From an uncultured bacterium (GTDB lineage Bacteria; Patescibacteriota; Minisyncoccia; UBA6257; 2-01-FULL-56-20): 64,000 nucleotides of DNA. The notes beneath the pieces were generated by a model. That model did no database searches. It worked only from the letters and a program-made list of their open reading frames with translations, and was not told where the DNA came from. A program made the translations under genes and the position numbers. The stretch spans positions 6,433 through 70,432 of the forward strand of contig CAVOJZ010000002.1 in the NCBI GenBank assembly GCA_963696395.1, in the 5' to 3' direction. Below, in pieces: positions 1-35,473 of this stretch (positions are counted from its first letter, which is position 1; every line of letters starts with the position of its first letter).

Positions 1-704
<704 letters not shown>

Positions 705-708
<4 letters not shown>

Positions 709-914
709 GCGTCGACGAGGGGCTCGCCGAGCTCGCCGCGGAGATCGACGCGCTCGCCGAGCGCCTGGCGGATCGCTCCTTGGAGCTCCTTCGCACCGCG
801 GTCCGCGAGGGGCCGACCACGGAGGCGGCGCGGCGCGAGAAGCTCGTGACCCGGGCTCGGCGATCCCTCGAGAAGGCCGCGACGCTGCTGCGCGGCCTCG
901 ACGACGAGCGATAG
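705..914 (+). CDS. Small hypothetical helical protein (about 69 aa), GTG start overlapping the upstream stop (GTGA)
   Basis: In-frame segment VSVDEGLAELAAEIDALAERLADRS...GLDDER inside ORF 39..914. High-GC DNA yields long ORFs by chance, so support is weak. Confidence 0.2.
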
Positions 915-918
915 GACG

Positions 919-1810
919 TCAGTACTCGTTGAGCGCGTCGATGAGCGCGCGCAGCCGCGCGTAGCTGAACTTGTCGAAGCGCAGCGCCACCCGCGCGAGG
1001 TCGAGGTGGTCGTGATCGGATCGCTCGGGCGGCAGGGGCTGGGTCGAGCGGATCCTCCCTGACACCGTGATGTCCTTGAACTGCTCGGACAGCTCGAGCA
1101 GCGCCGCGTCGTCGGGGAGCCGTGCGAGGCGCAGCACGAGCAGGTCCCCGACCCATCGGGCGGAGTGGTAGTTGCGGTAGTAGCGCTGGATCTCCGCGCA
1201 CGCCTCGTGCACGCTCGTCGCGATGCGGAAGAACGCGAGGTCGGGCACCGAGACGTAGCCGCGCGCGACGACCTCCTCCTCGACGAAGCGGAGCCAGGCG
1301 TGCCAGAACCCCTCCGCCGGGGGTCTCGACGAGGACGACCGGCGCGGGCTCGGCCTTCCCGGTCTGCAGGAGCGTCAGGAGCTCGAAGCACTCGTCGAGG
1401 GTGCCGAAGCCGCCCGGCAGGACGACGTAGGCGTGAGACTCCTTGATGAGCATCAGCTTGCGCGTGAAGAAGTAGCGCATCTCGACGAGCTTCGGGTCCT
1501 GTGCGATGAACGCGTTCGCGCCCTGCTCGTGGGGGAGGCGGATGTTCACGCCGAAGGAGCGGTCCCGGCCCGCGCCCTCGGTGCCCGCGGCCATGATCCC
1601 GGGGCCCGCGCCGGTCACGATCATCCAGCCGTCCGACGCGAGCTGGCGAGCGAGGTCGCGTGCGAGCACGTAGATCGGGTCCTCGGGTGCGGTGCGCGCC
1701 GAGCCGAACATCGTGACCTTGCGCACGTTGCGCCAGGGACGGAAGACCTCGAAGGCCTCAGCCATCTCCTTCAGCGCGGTGTCGGCGATCTTCAGGTCGA
1801 GGGTGTCGAC
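919..1810 (-). pseudogene. LOG family protein (TIGR00730-type Rossmann fold), frameshifted
   Basis: MFGSARTAPEDP...VTGAGPGIMAAGTEGA...VVLPGGFGTLDECFELLTLLQTGK...VETPGGG is read in the frame of ORF 596..3259 (M at 1711 or 1765). The C-terminal part continues in a different frame (ORF 919..1248), so there is at least one frameshift near 1250-1310. Confidence 0.6.
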
Positions 1811-1899
1811 TGTCCACGCGCGCGAGCTGCACCACGGTCTCGAACATGGACACGACGAGGTCACGCTGCTGTCGGGCAGAGCCCTGCACCTGCGACGAG

Positions 1900-4212
1900 C
1901 TCGTCGACGACGGTCCGGACGCGCTCGTCGGTCGTCATGCCGTCGGGCGTAGAGGGTGGTGCGCTGCACGCAGCGGCCGACCGAGCGGGCGCGACGATGG
2001 CTCGCGAGCTCGTCGACGCCCATGCCCTGCCCGTGCGCCGCGCCCGCGGCGCGCGAGATGTTCTCGTCCATCAGCGTGCCGCCGAGGTCGTTGGCGCCCG
2101 CGACGAGCACCTGGCGCGAGCCCTCGGCGCCGAGCTTCACCCAGGAGACCTGGATGTTGTCGATGGCGCCGGCGTAGCGCGAGCCGCCCGACGGCGTGCA
2201 TGAGGAGCGTCTCGCGGAAGGTCGGGCCGCTTCGCGCGCCATGCCGCGCAGGTAGATCGGCGTCGCCATGTGCACGAACGGGCAGCGGCACGAACTCGGT
2301 GAAGCCGCCCGTGCGCCGCTGGAGCTCCCGCGTGCGCGAGCAGGTGTCGCGCCCAGCGAGCGCGGCTGCTCGACGGCGCCGAACATGATCGTGACGTTCG
2401 AGCGCAGCCCGACCGACGTGGGCGGTCTCGTGCACCTCGAGCCACTGCGTCGGTGTTGATCTTGTCGGGGCACAGGACCTTGCGCGACCTCGTCGTCGAG
2501 GATCTCGGCGGCCGTGCCCGGCAGCGTCTTCAGCCCGGCGTCCTTCAGGCGCGTCAGGTACTCGGCAGCGACACGCCCGAGCGCCGCGCGCCCTCGAAGC
2601 ACCTCGAGCGCGCTGAAGGCGTGAATGTGGATCGTCGGGCGAGCCCTCCCGGACCGCGCGCAGCGACGTCGAGGTAGTAGTCGCCGTCGAAGGACGGGTG
2701 GATCCCGCCCTGCAGGCAGACCTCGGTGCGCCCGCGGTCCTCGGCCTCGCGCGACCCGGCGCGCGACCTCCTCGAGGTCGAGCAGGTACGGGTCGCCGCG
2801 CAGGTTGAGCGAGAGCGGTCCCTTCGAGAACGCGCAGAACCGGCACTTGAAGGTGCAGACGTTCGTGTAGTTGATGTTGCGGTTCACGACGTAGGTGACG
2901 TCCTCGACCATTGACCTCGCGCCGCAGGCGTCGGCGCGCCTCGGAGATCGCGTCGACGTCGCCGCCGCGCGCGCTGAAGAGCGCACGAGCTCGTCCTCGC
3001 CGAGCTCGTGACCCGAGCGCACGCCGGCGAGCACCTCGGCGACCGCGCCGCGGACCGACGAGCGACGCGGCGCCGCACCGGCGGCGGCGGCTCGGCGCCC
3101 CCGAGACCCAGGCGTCGTCGCGGCCGTAGCCGTCGGCGTCGTCGGAGCTGGAGGACCTTGGGCGCAGGGCAGCGTCGAGCCACCGCTCCGGGTCGACGCG
3201 CCACCTCGGGGTAGACCGTGAGCCGCGGGGCGAGCGCGAAGCCCGCGCTCGATCGACACCGTCGCGAGCGTGCTCGAGCTGCGGCCAGGCGCGCTCGGGG
3301 TTCACGTGGTCGAGCGTCACCGGCGAGATGCCCGCCGAGGTCGTCGGTGCCTGCGTCGACGATCGAGTCGGGTCGTCGCACGAGGTTGGGCGGTGCCTGG
3401 ACGTGGACGCGTTGGGCAGGAGCAGGCGCGCGGCCGCGATCGTCCAGAGCAGCTCCTCGAGCGGGGCCGGCGGCCAGTCGGCCATCGGGGTCCTCGGCTT
3501 CGGCAGGAAGTTCTGGACGATCACCTCTTGGACGTGGCCGTGGCGCTCGTGGCGACTCGGCGATCGCCGCCAGCGCGCTCAGACGGTCGGCGCGGTCCTC
3601 GCCGATCCCGACGAGCACGCCCGTGGTGAACGGGATGGCGAGCTCGCCGGCGAGCGCGAGCGTCGCGAGGCGACGCTCGGGCGTCTTGTCAGGGGCCAGG
3701 CGGTGCGCGTCGAGGTCGTCGCGCAGCGACTCGAGCATCATCCCCTGGCTGGCTGCGACCGCGCGCAGCGCGCGAGCTCGTCGCGGTAGAGGGCCCCTGC
3801 GTTCGCGTGGGGGAGCAGGCCCGTCTCGGGGAGCACGGCCGCGCAGGCCGCCGCGAGGTACTCGACGGTCGATCGCGTAGCCGTGCTGCCGCCAGCCACG
3901 ACGCGGCGTCGGCGTAGCGCAGCTCGGGTCGCTCGCCCAAGCGTGAAGAGGGCCTCGGTGCAGCCCGCCGCCGCGCCGCGCGCGCGCGAGGTCGAGGACC
4001 TCGTCGATCGACAGGTAGGGCGCGGCGAGGTGCGCCGGCGCCTTCGCGAAGGTGCAGTAGCCGCAGCGGTCCCGGCACAGCTCGGTCAGCGGGATGAAGA
4101 CCTTCGGCGAGTAGGTGACGGTCCGGCCGAAGAGTCGGTCGCGTCGCTCCCTCGCCACCTCGGCGAGCTCGCCGCTCGGCGCGTCGAGGAGGTCGTCGAG
4201 GACGATCACGGG
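1900..4212 (-). pseudogene. fbiC: FO synthase FbiC (fused CofG + CofH radical-SAM domains), multiply frameshifted
   Basis: CofG motifs (RTVTYSPKVFIPLTELCRDRCGYCTFAKAP; LGERPELRYADAAS; LWTIAAARLLLP) and CofH motifs (DVTYVVNRNINYTNVCTFKCRFCAFSKG; IHIHAFSALEV; NIQVSWVKLG...GANDLGGTLMDENISRAAGA; RTTLY) are scattered over three minus-strand frames (ORFs 2884..4440, 1935..3524, 596..3259). More than 6 frame changes are implied. Confidence 0.7.
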
Positions 4213-4225
4213 CGTCGGGGCCGGC

Positions 4226-5311
4226 TCACGCGACCGCCCGCTTCGAGTCGATCGTGGCGAGCAGCTCAGCGTAGCTGTCGGCGAACGACGCGACGCCCCG
4301 CTGCTCGAGCACCTCGGCGACGTCGTCCATCGAGACACCGGCGGCCTCGATCGCCTCGAGCGTCGCGTGCGCCTCGCCGACCTCGACGTCCACGGTCCTC
4401 GCGACGGTCCCGTGGTCGCGGAACGCCTCGATGGTCTCATCGGGCATCGTGTTCACCGTCGAGGGTCCGATCAGCGTGTCGACGTACAGGAGGTCGGCGT
4501 ACGCGGGGTTCTTCGTCGAGGTCGACGCCCAGAGCGGTCGCTGGGGCCTCGCCCCTGCGGCCGCGAGGGCCGCGAACCGCGCGCCGCCATGGTGCTCGGT
4601 GAACCGCTCGTAGGCGAGCTTCGCCTGCGCGACGGCGGCGCGACCCTTGAGCGAGCTCGGCGCGTGGAGCGCGTCGAGCCGCGCGTCGACCTCGGTGTCG
4701 ACCCTCGAGACGAAGAACGACGCCACCGAGGCGATCCGGTGCAGGTCCCGGCCTGCGGCCGCCGCCTGCTCGAGGCCGCCCATGAAGGCGTCCATCACCG
4801 CGACGTAGCGCTCGAGCCCGAAGATGAGCGTCACGTTGATGCTGATGCCCTCGGCGAGGAGCGCGGTGATCGCGCCGAGCCCCTCGACGGTCGCGGGGAC
4901 CTTCACGAGCAGGTTGTCGAGGGAGAACTTGGCCGACACCGCCCGCGCCGCGGCGATCGTGGCGTCGGTGTCGTGCGCGAGCGTGGGTGCGACCTCGAAG
5001 GAGACGAAGCCATCGGCCCCGTCGGACGACTCGTAGAGCGGCCGAAGCAGCGCCGCGACGTCGGAGATGTCGCGTCCGGCGAGCTCGACGAACGCCTCGT
5101 CGGACTTCGTGTCGCCGAGCGTGGCCACCTGCTCGTCGTAGAGGTCGGTCGCCTCGAGCGCCTTCGCGAAGATCGTCGGGTTGGAGGTGACGCCCCGGAT
5201 GCCCTCGTCGACGAGGGTCGCCATCGTGCCGTCGCGGAGCCAGTCGCGCCGGATGTTGTCGAGCCAGGGGCTCTGGCCACCGTGGTCGAAGAGCGAGGCG
5301 AGCGTGGTCAT
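4226..5311 (-). CDS. tal: Transaldolase
   Basis: Uninterrupted 361-aa ORF with transaldolase motifs (SPWLDNIRRDWL, GVTSNPTIFAKAL, actinobacterial-type length). Its start overlaps the tkt stop. Confidence 0.9.
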   Translation of the reverse strand: MTTLASLFDHGGQSPWLDNIRRDWLRDGTMATLVDEGIRGVTSNPTIFAKALEATDLYDEQVATLGDTKSDEAFVELAGRDISDVAALLRPLYESSDGADGFVSFEVAPTLAHDTDATIAAARAVSAKFSLDNLLVKVPATVEGLGAITALLAEGISINVTLIFGLERYVAVMDAFMGGLEQAAAAGRDLHRIASVASFFVSRVDTEVDARLDALHAPSSLKGRAAVAQAKLAYERFTEHHGGARFAALAAAGARPQRPLWASTSTKNPAYADLLYVDTLIGPSTVNTMPDETIEAFRDHGTVARTVDVEVGEAHATLEAIEAAGVSMDDVAEVLEQRGVASFADSYAELLATIDSKRAVA

Positions 5312-6021
5312 GCGCCGAGCAGCTCCTTCACCGTTGACGCGACGGCGGACGCCGTGAAGCCGAAGAACTCGAGCGCCACGTCACCAGGGGCGCTCACGCC
5401 GAACGTGTCGATGCCGATGGACTCGTCGGCGTAGCGCTCCCAGCCGAGCGTGACCCCCGCCTCGACGGAGAGGACGGGCAGGTCCTCGGGGAAGACGGAC
5501 GCCTGGTACTCGAAGCTCGTCGCGTCGAACCACTCCCAGCACGGCATCGAGACGACCCGGACCGGCATCCCCGCGGCCTCGAGGGGCGCCGCCGCCTCGA
5601 GGCAGAGGTGCACCTCGCTGCCCGTCGCGACGAGCGTCGCCTGGGCGCCGGCCGGGTCCGAGAGCACGTACGCGCCGTCGAGGGGGGTGCCCACGGCGGG
5701 GTGCAGCACCTCGTCGAGCACCGGCAAGGCCTGGCGCGACAGGATCATCGCCGCCGGGCCGTCGACGGCCAGGAACGCGTCGAACACCGCCTCGCACTCG
5801 TTGGCGTCCGCGGGGCGGATCACGTCGAGCCCGGGGATCGCGCGCAGCGAGCACAGCTGGTCGACCGGCTGGTGGGTCGGGCCGTCCTGGCCGAGGCCGA
5901 TCGAGTCGTGGCTGAACAGGTACCGCACGGGCGCCTCGGAGATCGCCGCCACGCGGATCGCAGAGCGCATGTAGTCGGAGAACGCGAAGAACGTCGCGCC
6001 CACCGGGATGATCCCGCCGGA
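5308..6021 (-). CDS. tkt: Transketolase, C-terminal ~237 aa only (5' part absent; truncated at the GC-content junction)
   Basis: GGIIPVGATFFAFSDYMRSAIRVAAISEAPVRYLFSHDSIGLGQDGPTHQPVDQL...RPADANE...VVSMPCWEWF... are transketolase TPP/C-terminal domain motifs. The ORF is continuous into low-GC DNA, which encodes an unrelated protein. Confidence 0.85.
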   Translation of the reverse strand, partial: SGGIIPVGATFFAFSDYMRSAIRVAAISEAPVRYLFSHDSIGLGQDGPTHQPVDQLCSLRAIPGLDVIRPADANECEAVFDAFLAVDGPAAMILSRQALPVLDEVLHPAVGTPLDGAYVLSDPAGAQATLVATGSEVHLCLEAAAPLEAAGMPVRVVSMPCWEWFDATSFEYQASVFPEDLPVLSVEAGVTLGWERYADESIGIDTFGVSAPGDVALEFFGFTASAVASTVKELLGA

Positions 6022-6753
6022 AAGGTTTGCAATAAATATTTTTCCGGAATCCATAATGTCTCGCATATTGATCGTCGAACGTGACTGGCCTAAAATATTC
6101 CGGATGAGCGGATTTGAAACGAACTGCCCGACTTTGTTTTGGATCGCCGCCAATGCTTCGGTTTCCAATTTTTGCGAATAGCGCGCAAACTCATTCTGCC
6201 AGAAAGCCTTGATGATCGGATCTTTCAGGTTATCTACGATATTTTTTCGGTACGGCGGCTCCGAAAACATGCGCAAAACGCCAAGCAACGTTGAGCCGGG
6301 GTATTCGAGAAGGGCAAGCAACGTATTGTTTAAAATGTATTCCATGCGCGCCGACCATGCGTCAACCCAGATTTTCTTGAAAACACCCATGATGCCCGAA
6401 GCGACCAGATGGCGGAACTCGGTCCCGACCTGTTCCATTGGGTTAAACGCAACCGGGTGCTCCATGTCCGAAGGATCGAAATAGATGACGTCATCGAGCC
6501 GATTCTCGGGAATAAAATCCAAAAGCATTTCGGCGGATGAACCGTGCGGATCGATAAAGGCAATTCCTTTCCCCGATTTAATGTCGGCGATCGCCATATT
6601 CTCAAGGAGCGTACTTTTTCCGACCCCTGTTTTTCCCACCACATATACGTGGCGCCGGCGGTCATCAAGTTTGATGCCAAATTTTTGCTCTTTATTGCCC
6701 CTGAAATTATGGAATCCGAGCGGGGTGATGTCTTTGTTTTGGTCGTGTGGCAT
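6022..6753 (-). CDS. Type IV secretion coupling-protein-like ATPase (TraD/VirD4/TraG family), N-terminal ~243 aa, truncated at the junction
   Basis: Walker A VVGKTGVGKSTLL is followed by IAFIDPHGS (a DPKG-type motif of T4SS coupling proteins). Low-GC codon usage. The C-terminus is missing. Confidence 0.6.
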
Positions 6754-6756
6754 TGG

Positions 6757-8073
6757 TTATTGTAATTCCTCTTCTTCAATGACCGGCAGCGATGCCGGTG
6801 GACTACCTTTGCGGGAACCGATCTTTTCAAGTTCGGTGGTGGAAACCGTGCCAAGCGGAAAATGGAAAAGGGTCGCGAGCTCCTCGGTGTTAAAGACAGC
6901 TGTTGGTGATCCGTGGAGAATATTTTTGTAATGTTCGTAGAGAAGTCGCTTCCGCCAGGCGAGACGAGTTTTTTTAAATAATCCTTTCACCGCATAACCC
7001 GCGGTCGTAGTCGACTTCTCCGGTTTTAACTGCTGAAGGTTTTGTGTATTAAACTGGCGCATAAAACCATGGAGTGAGTTGATATAGCCCGAATCGGGCG
7101 ACGCAACATCCCTCTGGGTGATTACTACAAATCGGACCGTCGTATCAAACGAAAGTTTGGCAATTTTCTGCTGGATTGCATCGCCGCGCTCCTTGTCATG
7201 GGGCGAAAGCAAAAGCCGCGGAAACTTGTCCTTTTCCTCTTTTTTCGCAGCCCGTTCACCGGGATGCTGAAACGGTGCCCGCACAACATCTTCGGCGGTG
7301 AAGCCAAGATCGAATCCCGCGAAAACTCCTTTCTTTTTTTCTTCAGTCAGGCCATACATTTTATCGAGCGCAGCCTTTCCCGCCTTAAACGTAGTCTCGC
7401 CAGCCGGACGAACAAGAACCTGATACCAGATTTGTTCGCCCTCTTTCAATTTTGACATGATCTCCATGAGGCCGGCGATTGGATCAAGTCTTTGCTCCTC
7501 GACGCTTTCCTCGAACATTGGATAGGTCCGGATTGGGAAATAAGCTTCGTGGCGCTGGACTTCTTCAAATCCGGAAAGGTCAAAGTTACGGTTCGGGATG
7601 ATCTTCGGCATTTCGTCCAGATAGTCATCCGCTTCGGTGATTTCCGCGTCGGGATACTGACCGTAAATCGCCGACTCAATCATATTCCGATATTCATCCG
7701 GAACGCGTAGGTAAAAATGTGTCTCCCCTACCCGCCCAATCAACTCGAATGACATCCAATATTCATCTCTGCCTTGTATGTATTTTTGAAACCAACTATA
7801 GCCATAGGAATACGGAGCGTGGGCGGCGGCAAAGATCTGCTCCATGGCCTTCGGTGTTTTTAGAATATTTTTAGGAACTTTAAGCTCCAACAACGTCCAG
7901 TGAATATGGTGTACCCACTTGTGATGCAAATAAAGATGCCAGGCTTCCCAAAAAACGATGATCGCAATAAGGGGCGCAGCAAACCACCAGACCGCCTCCC
8001 AGACGGCCCATATACTGCCCAGAATTCCCAGAACGAAAGACGGCAATGTTGGCAATGAAAAGAAATTAGACAT
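6757..8073 (-). CDS. Membrane protein (N-terminal TM segments plus large soluble domain), hypothetical; operonic with the TraD-like ATPase
   Basis: 438-aa ORF with hydrophobic N-terminus (FVLGILGSIWAVWEAVWWFAAPLIAIIVFW). Its stop lies 3 bp from the ATG of the downstream ATPase gene. Confidence 0.6.
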   Translation of the reverse strand: MSNFFSLPTLPSFVLGILGSIWAVWEAVWWFAAPLIAIIVFWEAWHLYLHHKWVHHIHWTLLELKVPKNILKTPKAMEQIFAAAHAPYSYGYSWFQKYIQGRDEYWMSFELIGRVGETHFYLRVPDEYRNMIESAIYGQYPDAEITEADDYLDEMPKIIPNRNFDLSGFEEVQRHEAYFPIRTYPMFEESVEEQRLDPIAGLMEIMSKLKEGEQIWYQVLVRPAGETTFKAGKAALDKMYGLTEEKKKGVFAGFDLGFTAEDVVRAPFQHPGERAAKKEEKDKFPRLLLSPHDKERGDAIQQKIAKLSFDTTVRFVVITQRDVASPDSGYINSLHGFMRQFNTQNLQQLKPEKSTTTAGYAVKGLFKKTRLAWRKRLLYEHYKNILHGSPTAVFNTEELATLFHFPLGTVSTTELEKIGSRKGSPPASLPVIEEEELQ

Positions 8074-8139
8074 AGTACGCTATCTTAAGGATAGCAAAAT
8101 TTTCAAAAGTGCGGAGGGCGGATGCGAACGCAATCAAGC

Positions 8140-9171
8140 CTACGCCTCCCGGACGCGATACCTGCCGTCCGGCATGCGCTCAAAGTAACTCTTATTTTGC
8201 AAATTGATAAGAATGGTGTTCGGCTTGAAAAAACGCTCATGATTTACATGGGTGACGACATCAGTCGGGCGCAACGGTCCGCGGTGCTTCAAAACTTTTG
8301 CGATCACCTGCCGTGCAGTGCCCGGTTCATACCCGTTCTCTTTCAATCCGTACATCCCGCGTCCGACGAGGACAAACCGCTCATCCTTGATAAGTTCGTT
8401 GTGGACGGTCGGAGCAAGAGCTTTCTGATCATCAAAACCAACATTGTTGATATGCTTGGCGATATCCTCAAAATGGAGCGGCTCCGCCTTTTTCTTCAAA
8501 ACCAAATAGATTTTGTCCCGAACGGTTGAAGGGCTTATCTCAGGCCATTCCCGAAGACCAACATCGCCATACGGGTTCTGATGAATCCGCTTTGAAAGTG
8601 AGAGGTAATTTTCGGCGATATTTTTCTGAGCCGATTTCGATTTCAAAAACGACGCGAGCTGAACGTTATACGAATCTGCAAATACCTTATCCTTCCGGTC
8701 TTTCAAAAAATTAACCCAATTATCGACAAAAGTCTGCGCTGTTTTCATGTCTTTCTCGCTCACGTAATAGAAGGGGTGATAGCGCTCGTCTTCGCGGTAC
8801 AAATTAAAAGCTCCCGTTGCTTCGGCAAGGAAATCGAGGTGCTCCTCCCGGACTCCGTTCATTACCGTTGACGCAAACTGGGCAACATCCTCCTTTCGGG
8901 CGACGCCGCCTTTGCTTGCGATAAATTTCTTAATGCGGTCAAGCGCAGTTCCTGCTTCTGGGTTTTGCAGGAGGTTTTTCTTTACGAGCACGATCGCGCC
9001 GTTTTCAATCTGGCGCACCCGCTCACGGGTTACATTCAACCGATCCCCGATTGCAGCCAGAGTTTCGCCTCCGGAGCCCTTTTCCAGCCCAAAACGAGCC
9101 GTTATAACCTCCTTTTGACGGGGGCTTAGGTCGGCCAATGCGCTGGTTACGATTTTAGAGATAGACGACAT
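8140..9171 (-). CDS. DNA-binding protein with N-terminal sigma-70 region-4-like HTH and internal HARE-HTH-like winged-helix domain
   Basis: The N-terminus LSPRQKEVITARFGL...ETLAAIGDRLNVTRERVRQIE matches sigma70_r4. The segment KIYLVLKKKAEPLHFEDIAKHINNVGF...RFVLVGRGMYGLKENGY resembles HARE-HTH (RNAP delta / restriction-enzyme type). Confidence 0.7.
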   Translation of the reverse strand: MSSISKIVTSALADLSPRQKEVITARFGLEKGSGGETLAAIGDRLNVTRERVRQIENGAIVLVKKNLLQNPEAGTALDRIKKFIASKGGVARKEDVAQFASTVMNGVREEHLDFLAEATGAFNLYREDERYHPFYYVSEKDMKTAQTFVDNWVNFLKDRKDKVFADSYNVQLASFLKSKSAQKNIAENYLSLSKRIHQNPYGDVGLREWPEISPSTVRDKIYLVLKKKAEPLHFEDIAKHINNVGFDDQKALAPTVHNELIKDERFVLVGRGMYGLKENGYEPGTARQVIAKVLKHRGPLRPTDVVTHVNHERFFKPNTILINLQNKSYFERMPDGRYRVREA

Positions 9172-9249
9172 GGTTTATTTATTTTCTTGTAATATAACCT
9201 ATACTACACTAAAACGCAAGGCCCTGTCAACAACCCCTTGCCTAAGGAC

Positions 9250-10149
9250 CTAATTAGTGTCTTTCGGGCTAACAAGAACAAGCGCCGGACTCGCAATAAA
9301 GATTGACGAATAAATACCGGTCGTTACTCCAACGAGCAGCGTGAGAACGAAGTATTGCAGGTCGGTCGGGCCGGCAAAATAGAGTGCGAGGAGAACAAGG
9401 ATGAGCGTGAGTGACGTGTTGATTGAACGAGCCAAGGTCTGGTTCACGCTGTCATTGATAATTTTTTGGAACGGAACTTTTCCTCGTTGCGAAAGAAGAT
9501 TTTCACGAATCCGGTCAAATACCACAATTGTGTCATGAACCGAGAAGCCCATCACAACCAGCAACGCAACGATAAAGTTGCTGTCGATTTGCACGTTTTG
9601 CGTATGGCCAAGAAACGCAAGCAAGCCGGCCGGAATAGCGACATCGTGGAAAAGAGTTAAAAGCGTAATCCAGCCGTATTTCCATGAGCTGATTGGACGC
9701 GATGCCTTCCTGAAGGCATAAGCTATGTAAAGTGAAATTCCCACAAGAACAAGGATGATTGCAATAATGGCGTTCGTCTTGAGTCCGGCTCCAATCGAAG
9801 GGCTGATAGATTCAAAATTCAATTCCTGGAACGATGGCCACGTACTTTGGAGAATCTTCAAATCCTGCTGGTGGGTTGCTTCATCGAGTGTGTCGAATCG
9901 TGCCAGAAATTCCTGGTTGCCAGGGTCGTAGCTAATGATTGCGCCCTGAAGGTGAAGGGTGCTTACAAACAAGTTCTGAACCTCCGCAAGCGACGGCTGA
10001 TTTGTGGGTATCTTAAATTCCCACAACGATCCGCCTTTAAACTCTGCGCTTTCCTGGAAGCCGAAGGTGAGCATAGCGATGACCGCGAGTCCGACAAGGA
10101 TCGCCGAAAATGCAAACCATATTTTTTTATGTCCTACGATATTTAACAT
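9250..10149 (-). CDS. secF: Protein translocase subunit SecF
   Basis: 299-aa multi-TM protein, SecF-like, immediately downstream of secD. Confidence 0.9.
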   Translation of the reverse strand: MLNIVGHKKIWFAFSAILVGLAVIAMLTFGFQESAEFKGGSLWEFKIPTNQPSLAEVQNLFVSTLHLQGAIISYDPGNQEFLARFDTLDEATHQQDLKILQSTWPSFQELNFESISPSIGAGLKTNAIIAIILVLVGISLYIAYAFRKASRPISSWKYGWITLLTLFHDVAIPAGLLAFLGHTQNVQIDSNFIVALLVVMGFSVHDTIVVFDRIRENLLSQRGKVPFQKIINDSVNQTLARSINTSLTLILVLLALYFAGPTDLQYFVLTLLVGVTTGIYSSIFIASPALVLVSPKDTN

Positions 10150-10151
10150 GG

Positions 10152-11408
10152 TTATGCTTTTGTCGATGTTGGTTTGAGCGACGTCTTATCTTTCAAAAAA
10201 ACGCGGAGGAAAAGCCTGGTCGTCGTAATGGCGCTGAACAAGCTCAACACAACACCGATAAGAAGCGTGAGCGCAAAGCCTCGTACAAAGCTTGAGGTGA
10301 AGAAATAGAGAATGAAAGCGGTGATGATGGTTGAGAAGTTGGAATCGCGAATTGACGGCCACGCCCGGCGGAATCCCTCTTCCAGCGCCGCAGCTTTGGA
10401 CAATCCCCGCTTCAGCTCTTCTTTGATGCGCTCGAAAATGAGAATGTTTGCGTCAACCGCCATACCAATCGTGAGAATGAAGCCCGCAAGGCCGGCAAGC
10501 GTCATCGTTACGCTAAAAATCTTGAAAATGCCGAGTGTAAGCGCGATATAGATGATGAGAGCCATTGCCGCGAAAAGCCCAAGAAGGCGGTAGTAAAAAA
10601 GCATAAAAAGAATGACGAGTATCGTGCCGATAATGCCCGCAAGGATCACTTTCTTTAATGAATCGGTTCCAAGGCTTGCACTGACTGTCTGCTGATTTAT
10701 CAGCTTGATCGGCGCCGGTAATGCTCCCGCATTAAATCGTCCGACAAGCTGCTGAGCGTCGGCAACCGTGAAACTCCCGCTGATAACCGCCGACCCGCCG
10801 GTGATGGCACTCTGAACCGTTGGGGCCTCGATCAATTGGTTGTCCAAAAATATCGCGAGCGGTTTGCCGACATTGGCGGCCGTAATTTCACCAAAGATTT
10901 TTGCGCCGTCAGTATTAAAATTGATCTGCACCTGCGGTTGACCGGTCGTCTGATCGAAAATAAGAGACGCTCCAGTGATGTATTGCCCGGTGAGATTTGT
11001 GTAGGTGTATTGCGTACCTGACGCAGTCTGGGCAACTTCGCGGAAATCAAGCAGTGGCGTTTGTCCTATTTGGTTAATTGCGTCACTCAAATTGCTTACG
11101 CCGGCAAGGTCAACATACAGTTGGGCCTGGTCCCCCGATTGCGAAGTATAAATATCTGGCTCGCTCACTCCGTATAAGTTAATGCGTTTTTCAATGACGT
11201 CCCGCATGCCCGAAACAACCGAACTCTGATCGGTTGACGAAACATTCGAGAGATCAATTTGATAGACCAAGTGGCTTCCGCCGACAAGATCAAGGCCGAG
11301 TTTCCATGGCATATAGCGCGCGCCGATCCATTTCGGATAAACAAAGAATCCCGCCGCGATTGCAACGAGAACGATAATGCATAAAAATAGGCCTGGGTGG
11401 CGCCTCAT
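10152..11408 (-). CDS. secD: Protein translocase subunit SecD
   Basis: 418-aa protein with N-terminal TM, periplasmic domain and C-terminal 6-TM bundle (FKIFSVTMTLAGLAGFILTIGMAVDANILIFERIKEE). Confidence 0.9.
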   Translation of the reverse strand: MRRHPGLFLCIIVLVAIAAGFFVYPKWIGARYMPWKLGLDLVGGSHLVYQIDLSNVSSTDQSSVVSGMRDVIEKRINLYGVSEPDIYTSQSGDQAQLYVDLAGVSNLSDAINQIGQTPLLDFREVAQTASGTQYTYTNLTGQYITGASLIFDQTTGQPQVQINFNTDGAKIFGEITAANVGKPLAIFLDNQLIEAPTVQSAITGGSAVISGSFTVADAQQLVGRFNAGALPAPIKLINQQTVSASLGTDSLKKVILAGIIGTILVILFMLFYYRLLGLFAAMALIIYIALTLGIFKIFSVTMTLAGLAGFILTIGMAVDANILIFERIKEELKRGLSKAAALEEGFRRAWPSIRDSNFSTIITAFILYFFTSSFVRGFALTLLIGVVLSLFSAITTTRLFLRVFLKDKTSLKPTSTKA

Positions 11409-11486
11409 TGGGAATTATGATAACAAATTGCCAGAAAAAAAGAAAGGGCTTACCATCGTAGTAGAAACCCGCCACCAAGGAGGCGT

Positions 11487-11735
11487 ATGCAAATCGTAGG
11501 AAACGGCATCAACCTGAAGAGAAGCATCGAACTTGCGTGGCCGGATAAGGGAAAAATCAAAATCGCCTGCCTCGCTGAATTGAGTAGCCAATTGACATTT
11601 CCGACGTCTCAATGCGACGAACGGTGCCATAGCCCTGCACTTCGGAGGCAATATAAGGAACATGTGGAATTCGCAATCGACACGGCAACTTCGCCAGTCG
11701 ATCTTTGCGATAAGCTCTTCCAGATCCGCATTTAA
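11487..11735 (+). CDS. Small hypothetical protein (82 aa)
   Basis: AAGGAGG sits 3 nt upstream of the ATG. The ORF is followed by a stem-loop plus T-run at 11739-11779. It lies in an otherwise 520-bp intergenic gap. Confidence 0.3.
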   Translation: MQIVGNGINLKRSIELAWPDKGKIKIACLAELSSQLTFPTSQCDERCHSPALRRQYKEHVEFAIDTATSPVDLCDKLFQIRI

Positions 11736-11738
11736 ACA

Positions 11739-11779
11739 AACGCCGCGACTTCACAACGAAGCAGCGGCGTTTTCTTTGT
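11739..11779 (+). terminator. Putative intrinsic terminator
   Basis: AACGCCGC...GCGGCGTT 8-bp stem (inner CTTC/GAAG pairing) followed by TTTTCTTTG. Confidence 0.4.
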
Positions 11780-11927
11780 GCAGGACAGGAAGCAGTGAGA
11801 TTCCTGCCAAAAGGCAAGGGCAATTCTTTTCTCCAAAAAAGGGTATGCCGGACGCGCGTAGGCGCGGAGGCGTAGGCCGTTTTCTGTAGAAAACGAGCCG
11901 ACCCTCTTTTGAAGAAAAGAATAACTT

Positions 11928-12012
11928 GGTGCGTCGGGCAGGATTCGAACCTGCGTAGCCCGTAGGCGACAGATTTACAGTCTGTTGCGATTGACCACTC
12001 CGCCACCGACGC
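11928..12012 (-). tRNA. tRNA-Tyr (anticodon GTA), long variable arm, CCA encoded
   Basis: Reverse complement GCGTCGG...cagaCTGTAAAtctg...GCAGGTTCGAATCCTGCCCGACGCACCA. The acceptor stem pairs, a T-loop GTTCGAATC is present, and the variable arm is 14 nt. Confidence 0.9.
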
Positions 12013-12055
12013 AAGAAACTATATTGTTATACAACGTTTTCCCAATTTTCGGAAG

Positions 12056-12454
12056 CTAAAGCGCTGCTCCGCCATCGTTCTGATCGGTTGCCCGTCGTCC
12101 AAACCTGCGGCGGTCATCACTGCGCCGCTCCGCGCCATCATCGGCTATTTCTTTAAAATTAATCGCAGACTTTCGCTCGTGCTCGTCTTCTTTGGCTTTC
12201 ATTTTTTGAATATGCGTACCGAGATTGTTGTCAATTTTTAAAATGGCAATTTTTATCTTCCTTAAAAATTTAAACAGGAAGCCGTTAAATGCTATATCGA
12301 TTTTTTCCGGAATCTCAGAGTGTGCCCAACGATCGAGAAGGCTGCGAGATTCATCAGCCGGCTCTTCGACGATCCGCGGCAACGCACGAACCATAAGATA
12401 GAGCACTGCGAGAAGGCAGAACATTAAAACCGTCACGAAAACAAATTCGATCAT
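12056..12454 (-). CDS. Hypothetical membrane protein
   Basis: 132-aa ORF with N-terminal TM helix (FVFVTVLMFCLLAVLYLMV). Confidence 0.45.
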   Translation of the reverse strand: MIEFVFVTVLMFCLLAVLYLMVRALPRIVEEPADESRSLLDRWAHSEIPEKIDIAFNGFLFKFLRKIKIAILKIDNNLGTHIQKMKAKEDEHERKSAINFKEIADDGAERRSDDRRRFGRRATDQNDGGAAL

Positions 12455-12461
12455 CCTACTA

Positions 12462-12917
12462 TTATACCTCGATCCGGTAGAATTGGTTCACGGTCACGTT
12501 CTCCCCAACTTTTGCGATGACTTCGTTTACAAGATCCTTGACGGTCTTGGATTCGTCTTTGATATAAGGCTGTACCAAAAGTTCTTCCATGCTTTTTGGA
12601 TCCATCGCGGAAATTTGCATCGCAATTTCATGGGCAAGTTTTTGAAACGGCTCCGAGCGGACCACGAAATCGGTCTCGGCGCGAAGTTCGATCATTACAC
12701 CGATTCGATCGTTGTGAACATACGAATGGACAAGTCCGGCGCCAGTCTCTCGGCCGGCCCGTTTTTCCACTTTTGCAATCCCCTTTTCCTGGATAATTTT
12801 TGCCGCAGCATCAATATCGCCGCCGGCCTCTATGAGAGCCTTACGGCAGTCCATAACTCCTGCGCCGGTCAATTCACGCAATTTTTGAACCGCTTCCGCG
12901 GAAATATCTTTTGCCAT
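12462..12917 (-). CDS. tsf: Elongation factor Ts (short form)
   Basis: MAKDISAEAVQKLRELTGAGVMDCRKAL is the EF-Ts UBA-like N-terminus. The ATG is at 12917. Confidence 0.85.
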   Translation of the reverse strand: MAKDISAEAVQKLRELTGAGVMDCRKALIEAGGDIDAAAKIIQEKGIAKVEKRAGRETGAGLVHSYVHNDRIGVMIELRAETDFVVRSEPFQKLAHEIAMQISAMDPKSMEELLVQPYIKDESKTVKDLVNEVIAKVGENVTVNQFYRIEV

Positions 12918-12921
12918 AATG

Positions 12922-13725
12922 TTATTTTTGCTGGGCCGGTGCCTCCGGCTTCGCGGCTTGTGCAGCCTCGGCGGCACGCGCGGCTTCTGACGCTTTCAGT
13001 TTTAATCCTGCTGCCATGGCGGATTCAACTTTGCTCAAAAACCACTCGATGCTCTTCTTCGATTTGTCGTTGCCGGGGACCAGATAATCAACTTCGTCCG
13101 GATCCGCGTCAACGTTCGCGAAAGCGACGATTGGAATTTTCTTAACGTGGGCTTCGCGGACCGCGGTTACGTGAAGCACCGGGTCAATCACCACCATGAC
13201 ATCCGGTTCGCGAACCATATTTTCCAGACCACCCATGAGTTCTTCAAGACGATGCATTTCACGCTCCATCTCGAGGCGTTCCTTCTTTGTATATTTTTCG
13301 AGCGCACCCGATGCAAAATCGGCGCGAAGCTTCTTCAAGTGGTCCACCCGCTTTCCGATAATCTTGAAATTGGTGATTGCTCCTCCGACCCAGCGGAACG
13401 ATACGTAGGGCGCGTTAAATTTTTTGGCAAGTTCCACAACCCCTCCTTCAGCTGCCGGCATTGTACCGACAAGAAGGATGAGTCCCCCGGTTCGCACTTT
13501 TTCAGTGATGAACGCAGTAGCAATATCGAGCATTTCCGATGTCTTTTGGAGATTCACAATCTCAATTCCCCCTCGATTCGCAAGGACAAATTGGCGCATC
13601 TTTGGATTCGTTTTGCTTTTCTTGCGGCCATAAAAAACTCCCGCATCCATCATCTCGCGGGATCCTTCGGCCGGATACGTGGCGTCTTGCGCATTCGCGC
13701 TTGGGACAATTACATCGTTTGACAT
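12922..13725 (-). CDS. rpsB: 30S ribosomal protein S2 (start uncertain; may be further downstream)
   Basis: MMDAGVFYGRKKSKTNPKMRQFV...GIEIVNLQKT matches the S2 N-terminal region. Classic rpsB-tsf order. Confidence 0.9.
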   Translation of the reverse strand: MSNDVIVPSANAQDATYPAEGSREMMDAGVFYGRKKSKTNPKMRQFVLANRGGIEIVNLQKTSEMLDIATAFITEKVRTGGLILLVGTMPAAEGGVVELAKKFNAPYVSFRWVGGAITNFKIIGKRVDHLKKLRADFASGALEKYTKKERLEMEREMHRLEELMGGLENMVREPDVMVVIDPVLHVTAVREAHVKKIPIVAFANVDADPDEVDYLVPGNDKSKKSIEWFLSKVESAMAAGLKLKASEAARAAEAAQAAKPEAPAQQK

Positions 13726-13803
13726 AGGTTTGATACGAGAAGAAGTATAGCAAACCCCTTGAAAGCTTTCAAGGGGGCGCAGCCGGGCGGCGAAACGCCC
13801 GTT

Positions 13804-14853
13804 TTAAAATGTTCTCGAGAGGAAAAAGATGACGAGCCCGAGCGCACAAAAGATTGCCGAAATGATCCAAAAACGCATGGTAACCTGTGATTCGGGCCAA
13901 CCCAACGCCTCGAAATGATGGTGTATCGGCGTTGAGCGGAATATTTTTTTCCCGTGCCGAAGCTTCTTTGAGATAACCTGAATAATCACCGATAACGATT
14001 CAACGACGAGAATAAACGCGAAAAATGGCAATATGAGCGTTGTGTTTGTGAGCATGGCAATGACCCCGATCGTGACGCCAAGCGACATGGCTCCGGTATC
14101 CCCCATGAAAAATTTCGCCGGATAGATGTTGTACCACAGGAACGCGAGCAAAGCCCCGATCATCGCCCCGCCGAATGCGGCGAGGTTATAACGGTGCAGG
14201 ACAAACGCGACTGTTGTGAGCGCGACGAAAGCAAAAAGCGAAACGCCGCCGAGCAGGCCATCGAGGCCGTCGGTTTCGTTCGCCGAAAACGCGCTCGCAA
14301 AAATAATGAAAATGAAGATTGGGATATACCACCAGCCGATCGTCACGTTGCCTACGAATGGAATATTAAGCACATCCCATTGCAAGCGGAAATAAAACCA
14401 CCAGGCTCCGACGGCGGCCATAATAAAATATAAAACTGACTTTTGGCGTATCTTGAGTCCTCCGCCATTCGCACCGCCGAGCTTCAAAACGCCCAACCAG
14501 TCATCCACGAAACCGAGTATCGCCGCGCCGGCGAGGGCCACAAGCGGCAGATACGTTTCCGCGCGGTCAACAAAATTGAAATAATGCCACATTCCGGCAA
14601 AGAGATGATTCAGGATGTCGAAAACGATGGCCATGCCCAATACGGTGGACCAGATGATAATGCCGCCACCGGTCGGCGTGCCGATTTTATTCTTATGCAA
14701 ATTATGAAAAACCGGTGTCACCGAATCGTCGCGGAGCTGTTTGCCGAAATTATGTTTTTTGAGGAACCTGAACCAAAACGGCGTCACAAAGAGAGCGACC
14801 AAGAAAGCAACGCTCGCAACAATTGTTACCCGGATGGTTTCGGCGATGAGCAT
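13804..14853 (-). CDS. mraY: Phospho-N-acetylmuramoyl-pentapeptide transferase MraY
   Basis: 349-aa polytopic membrane protein with MraY-type motifs (NLHKNKIGTPTGGGIII, DGLDGL). Confidence 0.9.
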   Translation of the reverse strand: MLIAETIRVTIVASVAFLVALFVTPFWFRFLKKHNFGKQLRDDSVTPVFHNLHKNKIGTPTGGGIIIWSTVLGMAIVFDILNHLFAGMWHYFNFVDRAETYLPLVALAGAAILGFVDDWLGVLKLGGANGGGLKIRQKSVLYFIMAAVGAWWFYFRLQWDVLNIPFVGNVTIGWWYIPIFIFIIFASAFSANETDGLDGLLGGVSLFAFVALTTVAFVLHRYNLAAFGGAMIGALLAFLWYNIYPAKFFMGDTGAMSLGVTIGVIAMLTNTTLILPFFAFILVVESLSVIIQVISKKLRHGKKIFRSTPIHHHFEALGWPESQVTMRFWIISAIFCALGLVIFFLSRTF

Positions 14854-14855
14854 GG

Positions 14856-15896
14856 CTATTTATAGTTTTGCTTTACCCAATTAAAAAGCTTCGTCGAATC
14901 GCCGAAACGATCGTCGGTTCCGAGCACCAGGATAAAAAGCGGATGGCCGGTGTAATTTAACACCGTCAATAAATTTCCACTTGCCTCATCGGTATGCCCC
15001 GTCTTGCCGCCGATGAAATCGGGCGCACCGGAAAAATTATCGATACTATTCACCGGCACTGTTTGATGGTCGGCCAGATTCGTAATAACAACGTGCGGAA
15101 CGCGGGTGATGGCAAAGATCTGTGGGTAATTGTTATAAATTTCCTGAGTGAGGATCAGCAGGTCGTGAGCGGTTGATTCGTTCGCGGACGAAAGTCCGGA
15201 TGGATCGTCATAATAGGTGTTCGACATCCCCCACTGGGCGGCTTTGGCATTCATGAGCGCCAGAAATTGAGTGCGGCCATAGGCCGTTGCAAGCGCCTCT
15301 GCGGCAACATTGCTTGATGGAAGCAATAAAACCCGAAGCAAATCGCTCACGGTATACGTTCCGCCGATTTGGAGACTGAATTCCTGAGGATCCACCGCAA
15401 ACATCTGCGGAGTGATGCTCACGGTTTGGTTCATCGGAAGATTGTCGAAAACGATCGCCGCCGTCATAAGCTTGGTGAGCGATGCCATTGGCCACCGGGC
15501 ATTCATATTAAGCGAGATCAATGGTTCTCCGCTCGTAAGGTCTGCGACAAGCGCGGCGGCATCTGAAAGTTGCGGAGGGTTAGTGTCGGCGGTTTTTGAA
15601 AAATCCTGCGTGGAATCGCTGATGGCGTAGCCAATTGCACCATTTTTAACGACGACTGGGTCGCTCACCACCGGCGACAAAGGATCGGTCTCGGCGGACA
15701 CGGAAGTTTCGGTTGTTGTGGCTATAACGGGAAGAATAAGGATGGGCTGCTGGCCGACGGCTTTTGCCCCGACCGTCTGAGCTTCGTTTGCAGACAGGCT
15801 CGGAAGAATCAAAAAGTTTGGATACGACGCGCGTGAAAAAAGCACGACTCCGATAATCACAAATAAGAAAATAAATTTAAGCGTGCTGTTGCTCAT
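14856..15896 (-). CDS. D-alanyl-D-alanine carboxypeptidase (S11 PBP5-like)
   Basis: Signal/TM N-terminus. SxxK motif MASLTK. LLPSSN (SxN-like). Confidence 0.85.
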   Translation of the reverse strand: MSNSTLKFIFLFVIIGVVLFSRASYPNFLILPSLSANEAQTVGAKAVGQQPILILPVIATTTETSVSAETDPLSPVVSDPVVVKNGAIGYAISDSTQDFSKTADTNPPQLSDAAALVADLTSGEPLISLNMNARWPMASLTKLMTAAIVFDNLPMNQTVSITPQMFAVDPQEFSLQIGGTYTVSDLLRVLLLPSSNVAAEALATAYGRTQFLALMNAKAAQWGMSNTYYDDPSGLSSANESTAHDLLILTQEIYNNYPQIFAITRVPHVVITNLADHQTVPVNSIDNFSGAPDFIGGKTGHTDEASGNLLTVLNYTGHPLFILVLGTDDRFGDSTKLFNWVKQNYK

Positions 15897-16428
15897 CGAA
15901 AACTTTTAATAGCTCCTGGAATTTCTCGAATTCCGGGAGGTCTTTTTTGTCGGTTATCCCGAGGTGCTTCATAAGGTCAAAAGTTGTTTGATATAAAAAT
16001 CCCGAAGGATGAGCCGGATCCGGAAACCGCTCAACCATGCCACGGATCATGAGGCTTCGTAAAATGACGATTGAATTCACGCCGCGAAGATATTCGAGTC
16101 GTGCGCGGGAAATTGGACCGAGGTAAGCGACAATCGAAAGCGCTTCAAGACTGGCGGGCGTCAGGTCCTCGGTGATTTCCTCTTTCACGAAATCTTCCAG
16201 GATCGCGTTGAAATCCGGTTTCGTGGTAAGTTGGGCTTTTTCGCGATCCGCGATGAGCTGCAGTCCACGCCCCGAAGCGGCGAGTGTCCGCTTATATCCT
16301 TCGATAACCTGTTCAAGCTCGTCGGGCGGAATACCAAGCACTGTCCCGATTTTTTTATACGACAACGGCTCTCCATGAATGAAAAGCAACGCTTCAAGAG
16401 ACGCCTGCTTGTTTTCGAGGTTTTCCAT
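15877..16428 (-). CDS. scpB: Segregation and condensation protein B
   Basis: LEALLFIHGEPLSYKKIGTVLGIP is the typical ScpB N-terminal wHTH. Adjacent to scpA. Confidence 0.85.
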   Translation of the reverse strand: MENLENKQASLEALLFIHGEPLSYKKIGTVLGIPPDELEQVIEGYKRTLAASGRGLQLIADREKAQLTTKPDFNAILEDFVKEEITEDLTPASLEALSIVAYLGPISRARLEYLRGVNSIVILRSLMIRGMVERFPDPAHPSGFLYQTTFDLMKHLGITDKKDLPEFEKFQELLKVFDEQQHA

Positions 16429-16429
16429 A

Positions 16430-17191
16430 TTATTCAGAGTTCCGCTTCTTGACCATTATATCAGAAAAATTTTCCATTTGCTCTAGTAAAACGAGCTGTT
16501 CGCGGGCGAGATGAAGGATCGCCAGAAAAATGACTATCATTTCCGATCGGGATTTTTCGCTCGACAAATTTTTGAAATGGGCCTCCCCTTCCTGCTGAAC
16601 CCTGCCCAGAACCTCGCTGATCTTTTCCTCGAGCGTAACGATTTTTTCTTTAATGGTCTCTGTCTCGAGTTCGTATGTTTTTATGGTTTCAAAGATCTGT
16701 CCGAGCGCTTCCGCAAGGCGATCAGCCGAAGTTGTGCTCCCCGGATAAAAAACCGATTGCCCCGGCGCAAGTCCGGAACCTTTTCCCAGAAAATATGGCC
16801 GGCTGAATGCTTTGTGGCTTTCGTGCCACAGATGATTAATATGGCGAAGCGCCGGCTTCAGTTGTTGATAAATTTTGAGATGGCCCTCGAGATCCTTAAT
16901 GCTCGCTTCTTCCTCGTCGGTCAATACGAGACCCGGCAATAGATATTTTGATTTAAGGAAAATGAGCCGACTCGCAACAGAAATGAAATCGGCAAGAACG
17001 CGAAGGTCAATGCGGAACCGTTCTTCGGTTGCAAAACCGCCGTCGTGCTTAAATGCTTCGAGATATTTCAAAAATCCGTCGGTAACCTTGGTAAGGCTCA
17101 CTTCGCTCACGTCAAGCTTTTGTTCCTCGATAAGCTCCAGCAGTTTTTCGAGCGGGCCGTTCCAGGTGCCGACCTGTGTTTGGTATTCCAT
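16430..17191 (-). CDS. scpA: Segregation and condensation protein A
   Basis: 253-aa kleisin-like ORF upstream of scpB. Confidence 0.8.
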   Translation of the reverse strand: MEYQTQVGTWNGPLEKLLELIEEQKLDVSEVSLTKVTDGFLKYLEAFKHDGGFATEERFRIDLRVLADFISVASRLIFLKSKYLLPGLVLTDEEEASIKDLEGHLKIYQQLKPALRHINHLWHESHKAFSRPYFLGKGSGLAPGQSVFYPGSTTSADRLAEALGQIFETIKTYELETETIKEKIVTLEEKISEVLGRVQQEGEAHFKNLSSEKSRSEMIVIFLAILHLAREQLVLLEQMENFSDIMVKKRNSE

Positions 17192-17243
17192 GGGTTATCA
17201 CTATAATACCGCAACGAAAGCGGTTGCGGTATACTTGAGGCAT

Positions 17244-19342: not shown

Positions 19343-19792
19343 CTAACGGGTATACGTGATGGTCTTATTCAATTCTGCATTTAGCGCTGATAACGTCACG
19401 CTCCCTGACGCATTTATGATAATCGAATAATCAGTATTGTAATCGGTCGGTGAATTATAATACGAGCTTGTTGCCGATGGATCAAACGGCATGGCGAAAA
19501 GGCCGTCATTTGGGATGAGGCACGGCGCAATATTATAACTGCCGGAGGCACTTCCCATATTTTTCGTGGACGTCGGGATGCCGCCGGAGGCACAGACAAA
19601 CTGACTTGTGCCGCCTTCAAAAATATTTTCCCGGATGCCGAGCATAATGTTTTGGAGATCGACCATACGGCGGCTGTTTCTCGCGGAGGCAAGTTGTCCG
19701 GCCGGGTTTGCAACAAGAAAATAAATACCGACAAGTATCGCAATGAGTGCAACGACAATCACGATCTCGATAAGCGTTAAACCTTTGCGCAT
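19343..19792 (-). CDS. Type IV pilin (prepilin-type N-terminal cleavage/methylation domain)
   Basis: MRKGLTLIEIVIVVALIAIL is a class III signal peptide with G-L-T-L-I-E. Confidence 0.7.
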   Translation of the reverse strand: MRKGLTLIEIVIVVALIAILVGIYFLVANPAGQLASARNSRRMVDLQNIMLGIRENIFEGGTSQFVCASGGIPTSTKNMGSASGSYNIAPCLIPNDGLFAMPFDPSATSSYYNSPTDYNTDYSIIINASGSVTLSALNAELNKTITYTR

Positions 19793-19807
19793 ATGTTTAT
19801 TCTAGCA

Positions 19808-21232: not shown

Positions 21233-21235
21233 AGT

Positions 21236-25960: not shown

Positions 25961-26005
25961 GATTTCATTGTATCATAAGACCGCGCGCGTTCTTCCGTAT
26001 TATTT

Positions 26006-35472: not shown

Positions 35473-35473
35473 T

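Follow-up and report, generated by a model that had tools for sequence, protein, structure and literature searches.

The abrupt change of composition near the start of the window (the whole stretch of 64,000 nucleotides that was analysed) is very probably an assembly artefact inside a public metagenome contig of 913,682 bp, at which a Patescibacteria (CPR) chromosome has been joined to DNA from a member of the Acidimicrobiales. The join lies at 6019|6020 and cuts two unrelated genes in mid-domain: a transketolase gene (tkt) on the high-GC left side, and the gene of a T4SS-coupling-protein-like ATPase on the right. Together the two fragments read as a single open reading frame of 481 codons. 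This fusion ORF is not a biological feature, and the genes on the two sides are not to be read as neighbours.

Several outside sequences serve as points of comparison. L001 and L002 are two separate Logan contigs of run ERR11563597, the first of them 2,685 bp long. L003 is WOOD18-1 scaffold_371, the locus of a full-length relative of the coupling protein (P0122), and L004 is contig_21422 of ENA ERZ25039481, an independent contig of 103,610 bp. The features of the window are collected in Table 1.

Table 1. Features of the window on either side of the junction, with the evidence for each.
Feature	Position	Strand	Basis and remarks
Acidimicrobiales-derived foreign segment, GC about 0.72	1..6019		Composition; transketolase relatives; alignment to L004
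AMP-binding (acyl-CoA synthetase-like) gene, 3′ part, over three frames	1..911	+	Weak AMP-binding match; tblastn frames +2, +3 and +1
LOG/TIGR00730-family gene (Lysine_decarbox, SLOG)	922..2110	-	Domains; frame change near 1311 relative to L004
fbiC (bifunctional FO synthase CofGH), broken across all three minus frames	1920..4209	-	NF006687; GC3 phase; tblastn
Transaldolase, intact, 361 aa	4226..5311	-	TAL_FSA, E 3.9e-76; identical product encoded on L001
Transketolase 3′ fragment, last 236 codons of about 665 aa	5308..6019	-	Pfam; continuation in L001 and L004
Chimeric ORF, artefactual fusion	5308..6753	-	Open for 481 codons; equals public protein P0276
Junction	6019..6020		Blunt; tkt identity stops at 6019, CPR homology to L003 stops at 6020
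T4SS-coupling-protein-like ATPase, 5′ fragment (DUF87/T4SS-DNA_transf/TrwB_AAD_bind)	6020..6753	-	First 244-245 codons of about 653
438-aa CPR gene, ortholog of the L003 DUF8128 protein	6757..8073	-	Gene order in L003; nucleotide homology
343-aa Sigma70_r4 and HARE-HTH protein, first of a conserved three-gene CPR block	8140..9171	-	Domains; synteny with L003
Patescibacteria chromosomal segment, GC about 0.49, intact genes	6020..64000		Composition; domains; ORFs; match to L002

Position and nature of the junction

Base composition changes at a single point. GC content lies between 0.70 and 0.76 in every 1-kb bin of 1-6000 and between 0.46 and 0.57 in every bin of 6001-64000 (overall, about 0.72 to the left and 0.49 to the right of 6019|6020), and in windows of 40 nt it drops from 0.70 at 5980-6019 to 0.30 at 6020-6059. 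A maximum-likelihood fit with one GC change point puts it at 6019/6020 and raises the log-likelihood by 564; the next-best change point, within the right part, gains just 2.9. Oligonucleotide composition breaks at the same place: set against 6-kb chunks of the right part, the left part has tetranucleotide L1 distances of 0.81-0.91, while those chunks differ from one another by 0.19 on average. The original prediction had described an abrupt GC junction in the region of 6021|6022; bins, 40-nt windows, and change point all bear out the junction, as does the tetranucleotide comparison of the two sides, and its exact site proves to lie 1-2 nt further left.

Taxonomy switches at this same point, from Acidimicrobiales relatives of the transketolase to Patescibacteria relatives and a syntenic CPR scaffold. 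Separate homology searches of the two sides thus agree with the earlier view that they stem from very different lineages. Each interrupted gene is also found uninterrupted elsewhere: tkt in L001 and L004, and the coupling-protein gene in relatives that are 85-88% identical.

The two segments meet with zero filler bases and a possible overlap of at most 1 nt, and the cut falls between the second and third bases of codon 245 of the chimeric ORF. The longest k-mer common to both sides is 15 nt and is not located at the junction, for which reason a de Bruijn or repeat-driven mis-join was rejected. There are no terminal inverted repeats and no target duplication at the junction, and no meaningful repeats within 5500-6600. 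No mobile-element signature was found there either, the adjoining genes including no integrase or recombinase and no att site, and the nearest tRNA to the junction is at 11927. The integrase, att or tRNA target, and flanking repeats of an integrated mobile element were accordingly not seen around this join. The window begins inside the foreign segment, so that one end of that segment—and hence one boundary—is visible.

The Acidimicrobiales side

Missing from the transketolase fragment are the TPP-binding domain at the N-terminus and, in the pyrimidine-binding domain, profile positions 1-68. A complete transketolase comprises PF00456 together with complete pyrimidine-binding and C-terminal domains; the window holds only positions 69-173 of Transket_pyr and the C-terminal domain. 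Full-length relatives are 661-676 aa long and carry PF00456, and the named ones belong to the Acidimicrobiales, in keeping with the high-GC, actinobacterial-type transketolase that had been predicted.

Two native copies show how the gene continues. L001 is 99.95% identical to window positions 4046-6019, without a gap, and then carries 711 nt more of native tkt. L004 is collinear with the window over positions 3-6019 (the 3′ part of tkt, tal, fbiC, the LOG gene, and the AMP-binding gene). Beyond that point the two part: in L004 the 5′ half of tkt follows, and after it a 4HBT gene and a cluster of proteasome/Pup genes; in the window, CPR DNA takes over. At the other end of the segment, the AMP-binding gene overruns the start of the window.

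The Patescibacteria side

To the right of the junction lie genes for SecDF, S2, EF-Ts, ScpAB, DnaX, type IV pilus proteins, a haem-copper oxidase operon, Obg, and BipA, among others. For the N-terminal 245 residues of the coupling protein, the best matches share 82-88% identity, and those with a name come from Patescibacteria or Parcubacteria lineages. After the shared sequence ending in ...GKIFIANLS, these homologues continue with KGxMGEDNSALLGA...YVDEFQNF, which includes Walker B, whereas the window continues with GGIIPVGATFF, which is transketolase. The full-length relative P0122 has 653 aa, and its residues 247-653 (407 residues) have no match anywhere in the window. A complete T4SS coupling protein of the VirD4/TraD/TraG kind has both Walker A and Walker B; here, Walker A is present and Walker B absent. 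Intact relatives of the protein carry PF02534, PF10412, and PF12696.

The gene order of a relative shows what has been cut. On L003, a gene for a Sigma70_r4/HARE-HTH protein (343 aa) is followed by those for a DUF8128 protein (449 aa), the coupling protein (653 aa), trmD, and comEC. Read from 9171 down to 6020, the window presents the same first three genes in the same order and orientation, and the coupling-protein part is 74% identical at the nucleotide level and 85% at the protein level. The 438-aa gene in the middle of this block has no Pfam match; L003 positions 8751-9404 align at the nucleotide level to window positions 7990-7334. The third gene of this block in the window, unlike that of L003, ends at codon 244-245, and trmD and comEC are replaced by Acidimicrobiales DNA. 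The nucleotide homology of L003 to the window stops exactly at 6020.

The description of this gene as TraD-like is right at the level of the family (DUF87, T4SS-DNA_transf, and TrwB_AAD_bind); the gene itself, however, sits in a conserved chromosomal CPR block with no visible conjugative element. An uninterrupted coupling-protein gene of this very organism was not found, intact copies being present in the relatives mentioned above. A number of homologues are labelled 'partial', and these were considered as a possible sign of a recurrent assembly break; the idea was rejected, since most are fragments with the source label SRC, which we take to be that of a protein-level soil catalogue, and a full-length member of 653 aa exists.

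The 481-aa open reading frame

The fusion predicted from the sequence, in which the N-terminus of a T4SS coupling protein runs into a transketolase, is seen both in the ORF and in its Pfam matches: a DUF87/HerA N-terminal match is followed by Transket_pyr, from position 69 of 174 in the profile, and then by the transketolase C-terminal domain. Residues 1-245 form the coupling-protein-like part, in which the predicted Walker A (GKTGVGKS, residues 40-47) and DPHG (residues 68-71) motifs are both present, and the ATG start agrees with that of homologues. Residues 246-481 are transketolase, the Pfam match beginning at residue 244; the share had rightly been assigned to the C-terminal part of that enzyme, and it amounts to 236 residues, not 237. 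Comparison with native copies and relatives shows, as had been proposed, that both genes are truncated at one and the same blunt point, each of them in mid-domain.

The ORF is already in the public record as P0276, which a search with native transketolase retrieved, a protein of 481 aa with PF01935 and transketolase domains that is held by NCBI and ENA and is identical to the window ORF at 481 of 481 positions. Two genes cut at random would be expected to meet on the same strand and in the same frame about 1 time in 6, so the in-frame fusion needs nothing beyond chance and is no evidence of selection. With neither Walker B nor the TPP-binding domain, the product would function as neither enzyme.

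Sequence quality on the two sides

The left segment carries many apparent errors, and these are patchily spread. Over positions 3..6019 it is 96.06% identical to L004, with 139 mismatches and 95 gap openings. Differences from the native contigs are almost absent in 750-1750 and 4000-6019 and reach about 7-8%, with many indels, in 1-750 and 1750-4000. In 1-750 the faulty copy is that of the window, because L004 has an intact AMP-binding gene of 475 aa there. In the LOG gene, tblastn with the L004 protein places residues 267-396 in frame -2, at 100% identity, and residues 1-267 in frame -1.

Within fbiC, stretches of NF006687 (profile length 849) fall in alternating frames (profile positions 49-117, 117-193, 190-263, 263-465, and 482-843), and further short excursions bring the total to about seven frame switches within 2.3 kb. 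This mapping used NCBIfam profile coordinates and JGI-listed proteins instead of database homologues, some of which match a single stretch of DNA in two frames and probably contain frameshifts of their own. Flips in GC3 phase, together with tblastn using JGI-listed FO synthases, bear out the frame switching. The fbiC gene is frameshifted in L004 too, at other places than in the window.

To the right of the join, 94% of 6020-64000 falls within greedy ORFs, whose median length is 278 aa, and the long genes there include COX1 (663 aa), BipA (613 aa), and PilB with full-length domains. The one external check of this side, against L002, gives 100% identity. An indel-rich consensus is characteristic of low-depth long-read data, and the contrast in quality across the join may be taken, from error density, as an indirect sign of a step in coverage. 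The clean patch beside the junction starts about where L001 ends (4046), and suggests local polishing or local support by several reads. Since the 2 kb to the left of the junction are clean, some polishing or several reads must cover them, which is a point against the preferred reading.

Both organisms in one sample, and one deposited contig

Acidimicrobiales and CPR bacteria coexisted in one sample, because run ERR11563597 holds both the tkt-tal contig and a CPR contig. The latter, L002, carries SecD and SecF and is identical to the window over 4,140 nt (positions 7819-11958). The Logan assembly of this run, which is independent, keeps the two organisms on separate contigs.

The public record, by comparison, has them on one. 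In NCBI and ENA, the entries for P0276, for the SecF of the right side, and for the transaldolase of the left side each point to a single contig 913,682 bp long. In independent assemblies the join does not recur: exact-pattern scans found a 34-mer spanning the junction in none of the genome, metagenome, and viral contig collections, and the fusion protein is known from one contig only. A 39-mer from the CPR side was likewise absent from the genome and metagenome contig collections in exact-pattern scans, so that the source organism is not represented there. Exact look-ups of the chimeric ORF, the neighbouring 438-aa protein, the tkt fragment, and P0276 gave no entry. No mention of the run and analysis accessions was found in the literature.

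Origin of the junction

The blunt join of two phyla, the mid-domain cuts, the native tkt copies, and the contrast in quality all argue for an assembly chimera, the first half of what the original prediction had called an 'assembly or concatenation chimera'. The second half does not hold for the window, in the sense of two records concatenated when it was built, since the fusion product and genes of both sides each lie on the single 913,682-bp contig.

Most likely, a thinly covered stretch of foreign DNA would have become attached to a well-covered CPR contig through one or very few chimeric long reads, in which two molecules had been ligated while the library was prepared, or else through a mis-join by a long-read assembler. 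Later polishing would have cleaned parts only of the foreign segment, and the 481-aa ORF would be a by-product of two minus-strand genes meeting in frame. From the indel pattern and the blunt join we infer that the contig derives from long reads; the route to the chimera was probably either in vitro ligation or the assembler, with thin read support.

A blunt join of unrelated molecules, no microhomology, and a thinly supported foreign segment are typical of ligation chimeras and of unsplit chimeric long reads, and the window resembles both in its 6019|6020 join and in the patchy read-level error to the left of it. Unsplit (in silico) chimeras usually retain an adapter at the join, however, and no remnant of the adapter sequences looked for was found at 6019|6020.

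Cross-phylum chimeric contigs have been documented in long-read metagenome assemblies, where they are marked by sudden shifts in GC content, coverage, and gene taxonomy (Trigodet et al., bioRxiv 10.1101/2025.04.22.649783). The present contig is like these in joining different phyla, with shifts of GC and taxonomy at 6019/6020. Trigodet and colleagues diagnose such contigs by read clipping; here, the diagnosis comes from native transketolase copies, synteny in a relative, and error density.

Other origins are far less probable. It is very unlikely that the join was made after assembly, by a submitter or by a scaffolding or bin-finishing tool that pasted contigs of one bin together without N spacers. 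Such end-to-end pasting would leave just this pattern (a perfectly blunt join, arbitrary cuts in both genes, and nothing shared between them), and the left segment does look like a low-quality contig. An apparently low-depth contig of 72% GC is, however, unlikely to be binned with a genome of 49% GC, given tetranucleotide distances of 0.8-0.9 as against 0.19. The remaining 58 kb show no other breakpoint or truncated gene, and the public record is that of one contig with one gene called across the join.

Very unlikely, too, is a real junction formed in vivo, in which a Patescibacteria cell took up DNA of an Acidimicrobiales host or neighbour, perhaps by way of its competence and type IV pilus machinery, and inserted it by illegitimate recombination into the coupling-protein gene, either in a rare subpopulation or very recently. 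Means and opportunity can be pointed to: both organisms occur in the same sample, the CPR segment has type IV pilus genes, the relative represented by L003 has ComEC downstream of the locus, and the left DNA shows no amelioration, which would fit a very recent event. The difficulty lies in the junction itself, at which both genes are cut in mid-domain, with no integrase, att site, or direct or inverted repeat found, and beyond which the conserved sequence expected downstream, the remainder of the coupling-protein gene followed by trmD, does not appear. Read-level errors on the left beside clean CPR sequence on the right indicate a depth that is apparently not that of the CPR chromosome, L001, the free-living native locus in ERR11563597, matches the left DNA at 99.95% identity, and the join is absent from the contig collections scanned. 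Quality contrast, mid-domain cuts, and the lack of an integration signature thus uphold the earlier judgement that a cross-phylum insertion is much the less likely reading.

In a consensus, a ligation chimera could not be told from a real but rare molecule. The chance is nonetheless slim indeed that the join records a true molecule, from a CPR cell that had just taken in at least 6 kb of DNA from a co-resident (possibly host) Acidimicrobiales bacterium and was captured in one or a few long reads.

A functional fusion of a coupling-protein ATPase head to a transketolase C-terminal module can practically be dismissed: the frame is open for 481 aa from a start that homologues share, but the join falls inside a codon and inside domains, the TPP-binding N-domain, Walker B, and the remaining ATPase are missing, the halves are 23 GC points apart and of different phyla, an in-frame meeting on one strand is no rare outcome of chance, and searches returned no second protein of such architecture, P0276 being the same sequence.

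Implications

If the junction were, after all, a true one formed in vivo, it would be direct physical evidence of a partnership between a CPR bacterium and an actinobacterium, and of ongoing DNA capture across phyla. With an assembly chimera as the preferred reading, its biological importance is small, and the presence of pentose-phosphate and F420 genes beside CPR secretion genes is an apparent neighbourhood that is not to be interpreted.

No reads are needed to recognise a join of this kind: here it was enough to have native copies of each side, the gene order of relatives, and the local density of indels. At least 6 kb of the deposited 913,682-bp contig, which probably represents the greater part of a Patescibacteria genome, are contaminating DNA from the Acidimicrobiales. 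As a consequence, a spurious DUF87::transketolase protein, P0276, stands in public protein collections, where it may seed false domain architectures as well as false calls of horizontal gene transfer, such as CPR bacteria that encode transketolase, transaldolase, or FbiC.

Frameshifts in the Acidimicrobiales segment and in related database entries

The fbiC gene (CofGH FO synthase) of the Acidimicrobiales segment lies on the minus strand at window positions 1920-4209 and carries about seven frameshifts. In an independent ENA contig, the native Acidimicrobiales locus L004, fbiC (12141-14300) is also frameshifted, at positions that differ from those in the window, and the annotation of that contig calls no gene over the 2-kb fbiC stretch. 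The fbiC stretch is of low quality in both public sequences. The transketolase of L004 (9027-11059) is called as two genes, one of 325 aa containing Transketolase_N and the other of 352 aa; because these calls overlap by 4 nt, a frameshift error is probable here too. A full-length version of 668 aa is represented by P0363, a database protein from JGI data.

Some database proteins designated CofH, of around 640 aa (for example, P0124 and P0126), matched two reading frames of the same high-GC DNA, a pattern of alignment which suggests that such entries are translations through frameshifted long-read contigs. Protein collections appear to be polluted by alternative-frame open reading frames from high-GC DNA.

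Gene content of the Patescibacteria segment

A three-gene block is common to the window (6020-9171, minus strand) and to L003, the corresponding locus of a CPR relative (7574-11962), and comprises a protein with Sigma70_r4 and HARE-HTH domains, a DUF8128 protein, and a type IV secretion system (T4SS) coupling-protein-like ATPase. No further T4SS genes were seen besides this ATPase in the stretches examined. The segment also contains a type IV pilus cluster (19808-25960, minus strand), the members of which are listed in the table below.

Selected genes of the Patescibacteria segment (window coordinates)
Feature	Position	Strand	Remarks
PilB-like T2SSE	24731-25960	-	pilus cluster
PilC-like T2SSF	23575-24762	-	pilus cluster
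578-aa protein	within 19808-25960	-	CarboxypepD_reg domain
Pilin-like protein	21236-21841	-	N_methyl motif
474-aa protein	within 19808-25960	-	no family
GGDEF diguanylate cyclase domain protein	29369-30355	+	
CrtC-like double lipocalin protein	31863-32885	-	
UbiA-family prenyltransferase	34579-35472	-	
COX3	35847-36419	-	
COX1	36416-38407	-	663 aa
Oxidase subunit II	38414-39247	-	COX_ARM motif, typical of quinol oxidases
DUF11 repeat protein	41745-43142	-	465 aa
356-aa protein	within 50231-54178	-	sole match weak, nitroreductase N-terminal
ThiF-family protein	within 50231-54178	-	399 aa
547-aa protein	within 50231-54178	-	no Pfam match

The GGDEF, CrtC-like, and DUF11 genes are unexpected accessory content given the small CPR genome. 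Three further genes stand side by side at 50231-54178 (minus strand), and these may form a small modification or RiPP-like cassette.

A haem-copper oxidase operon occupies 34579-39247 (minus strand), within which the UbiA-family prenyltransferase is a possible haem O synthase. Few CPR genomes encode respiratory oxidases, and for this reason the operon may merit separate attention; its role may be, for example, in O2 detoxification.
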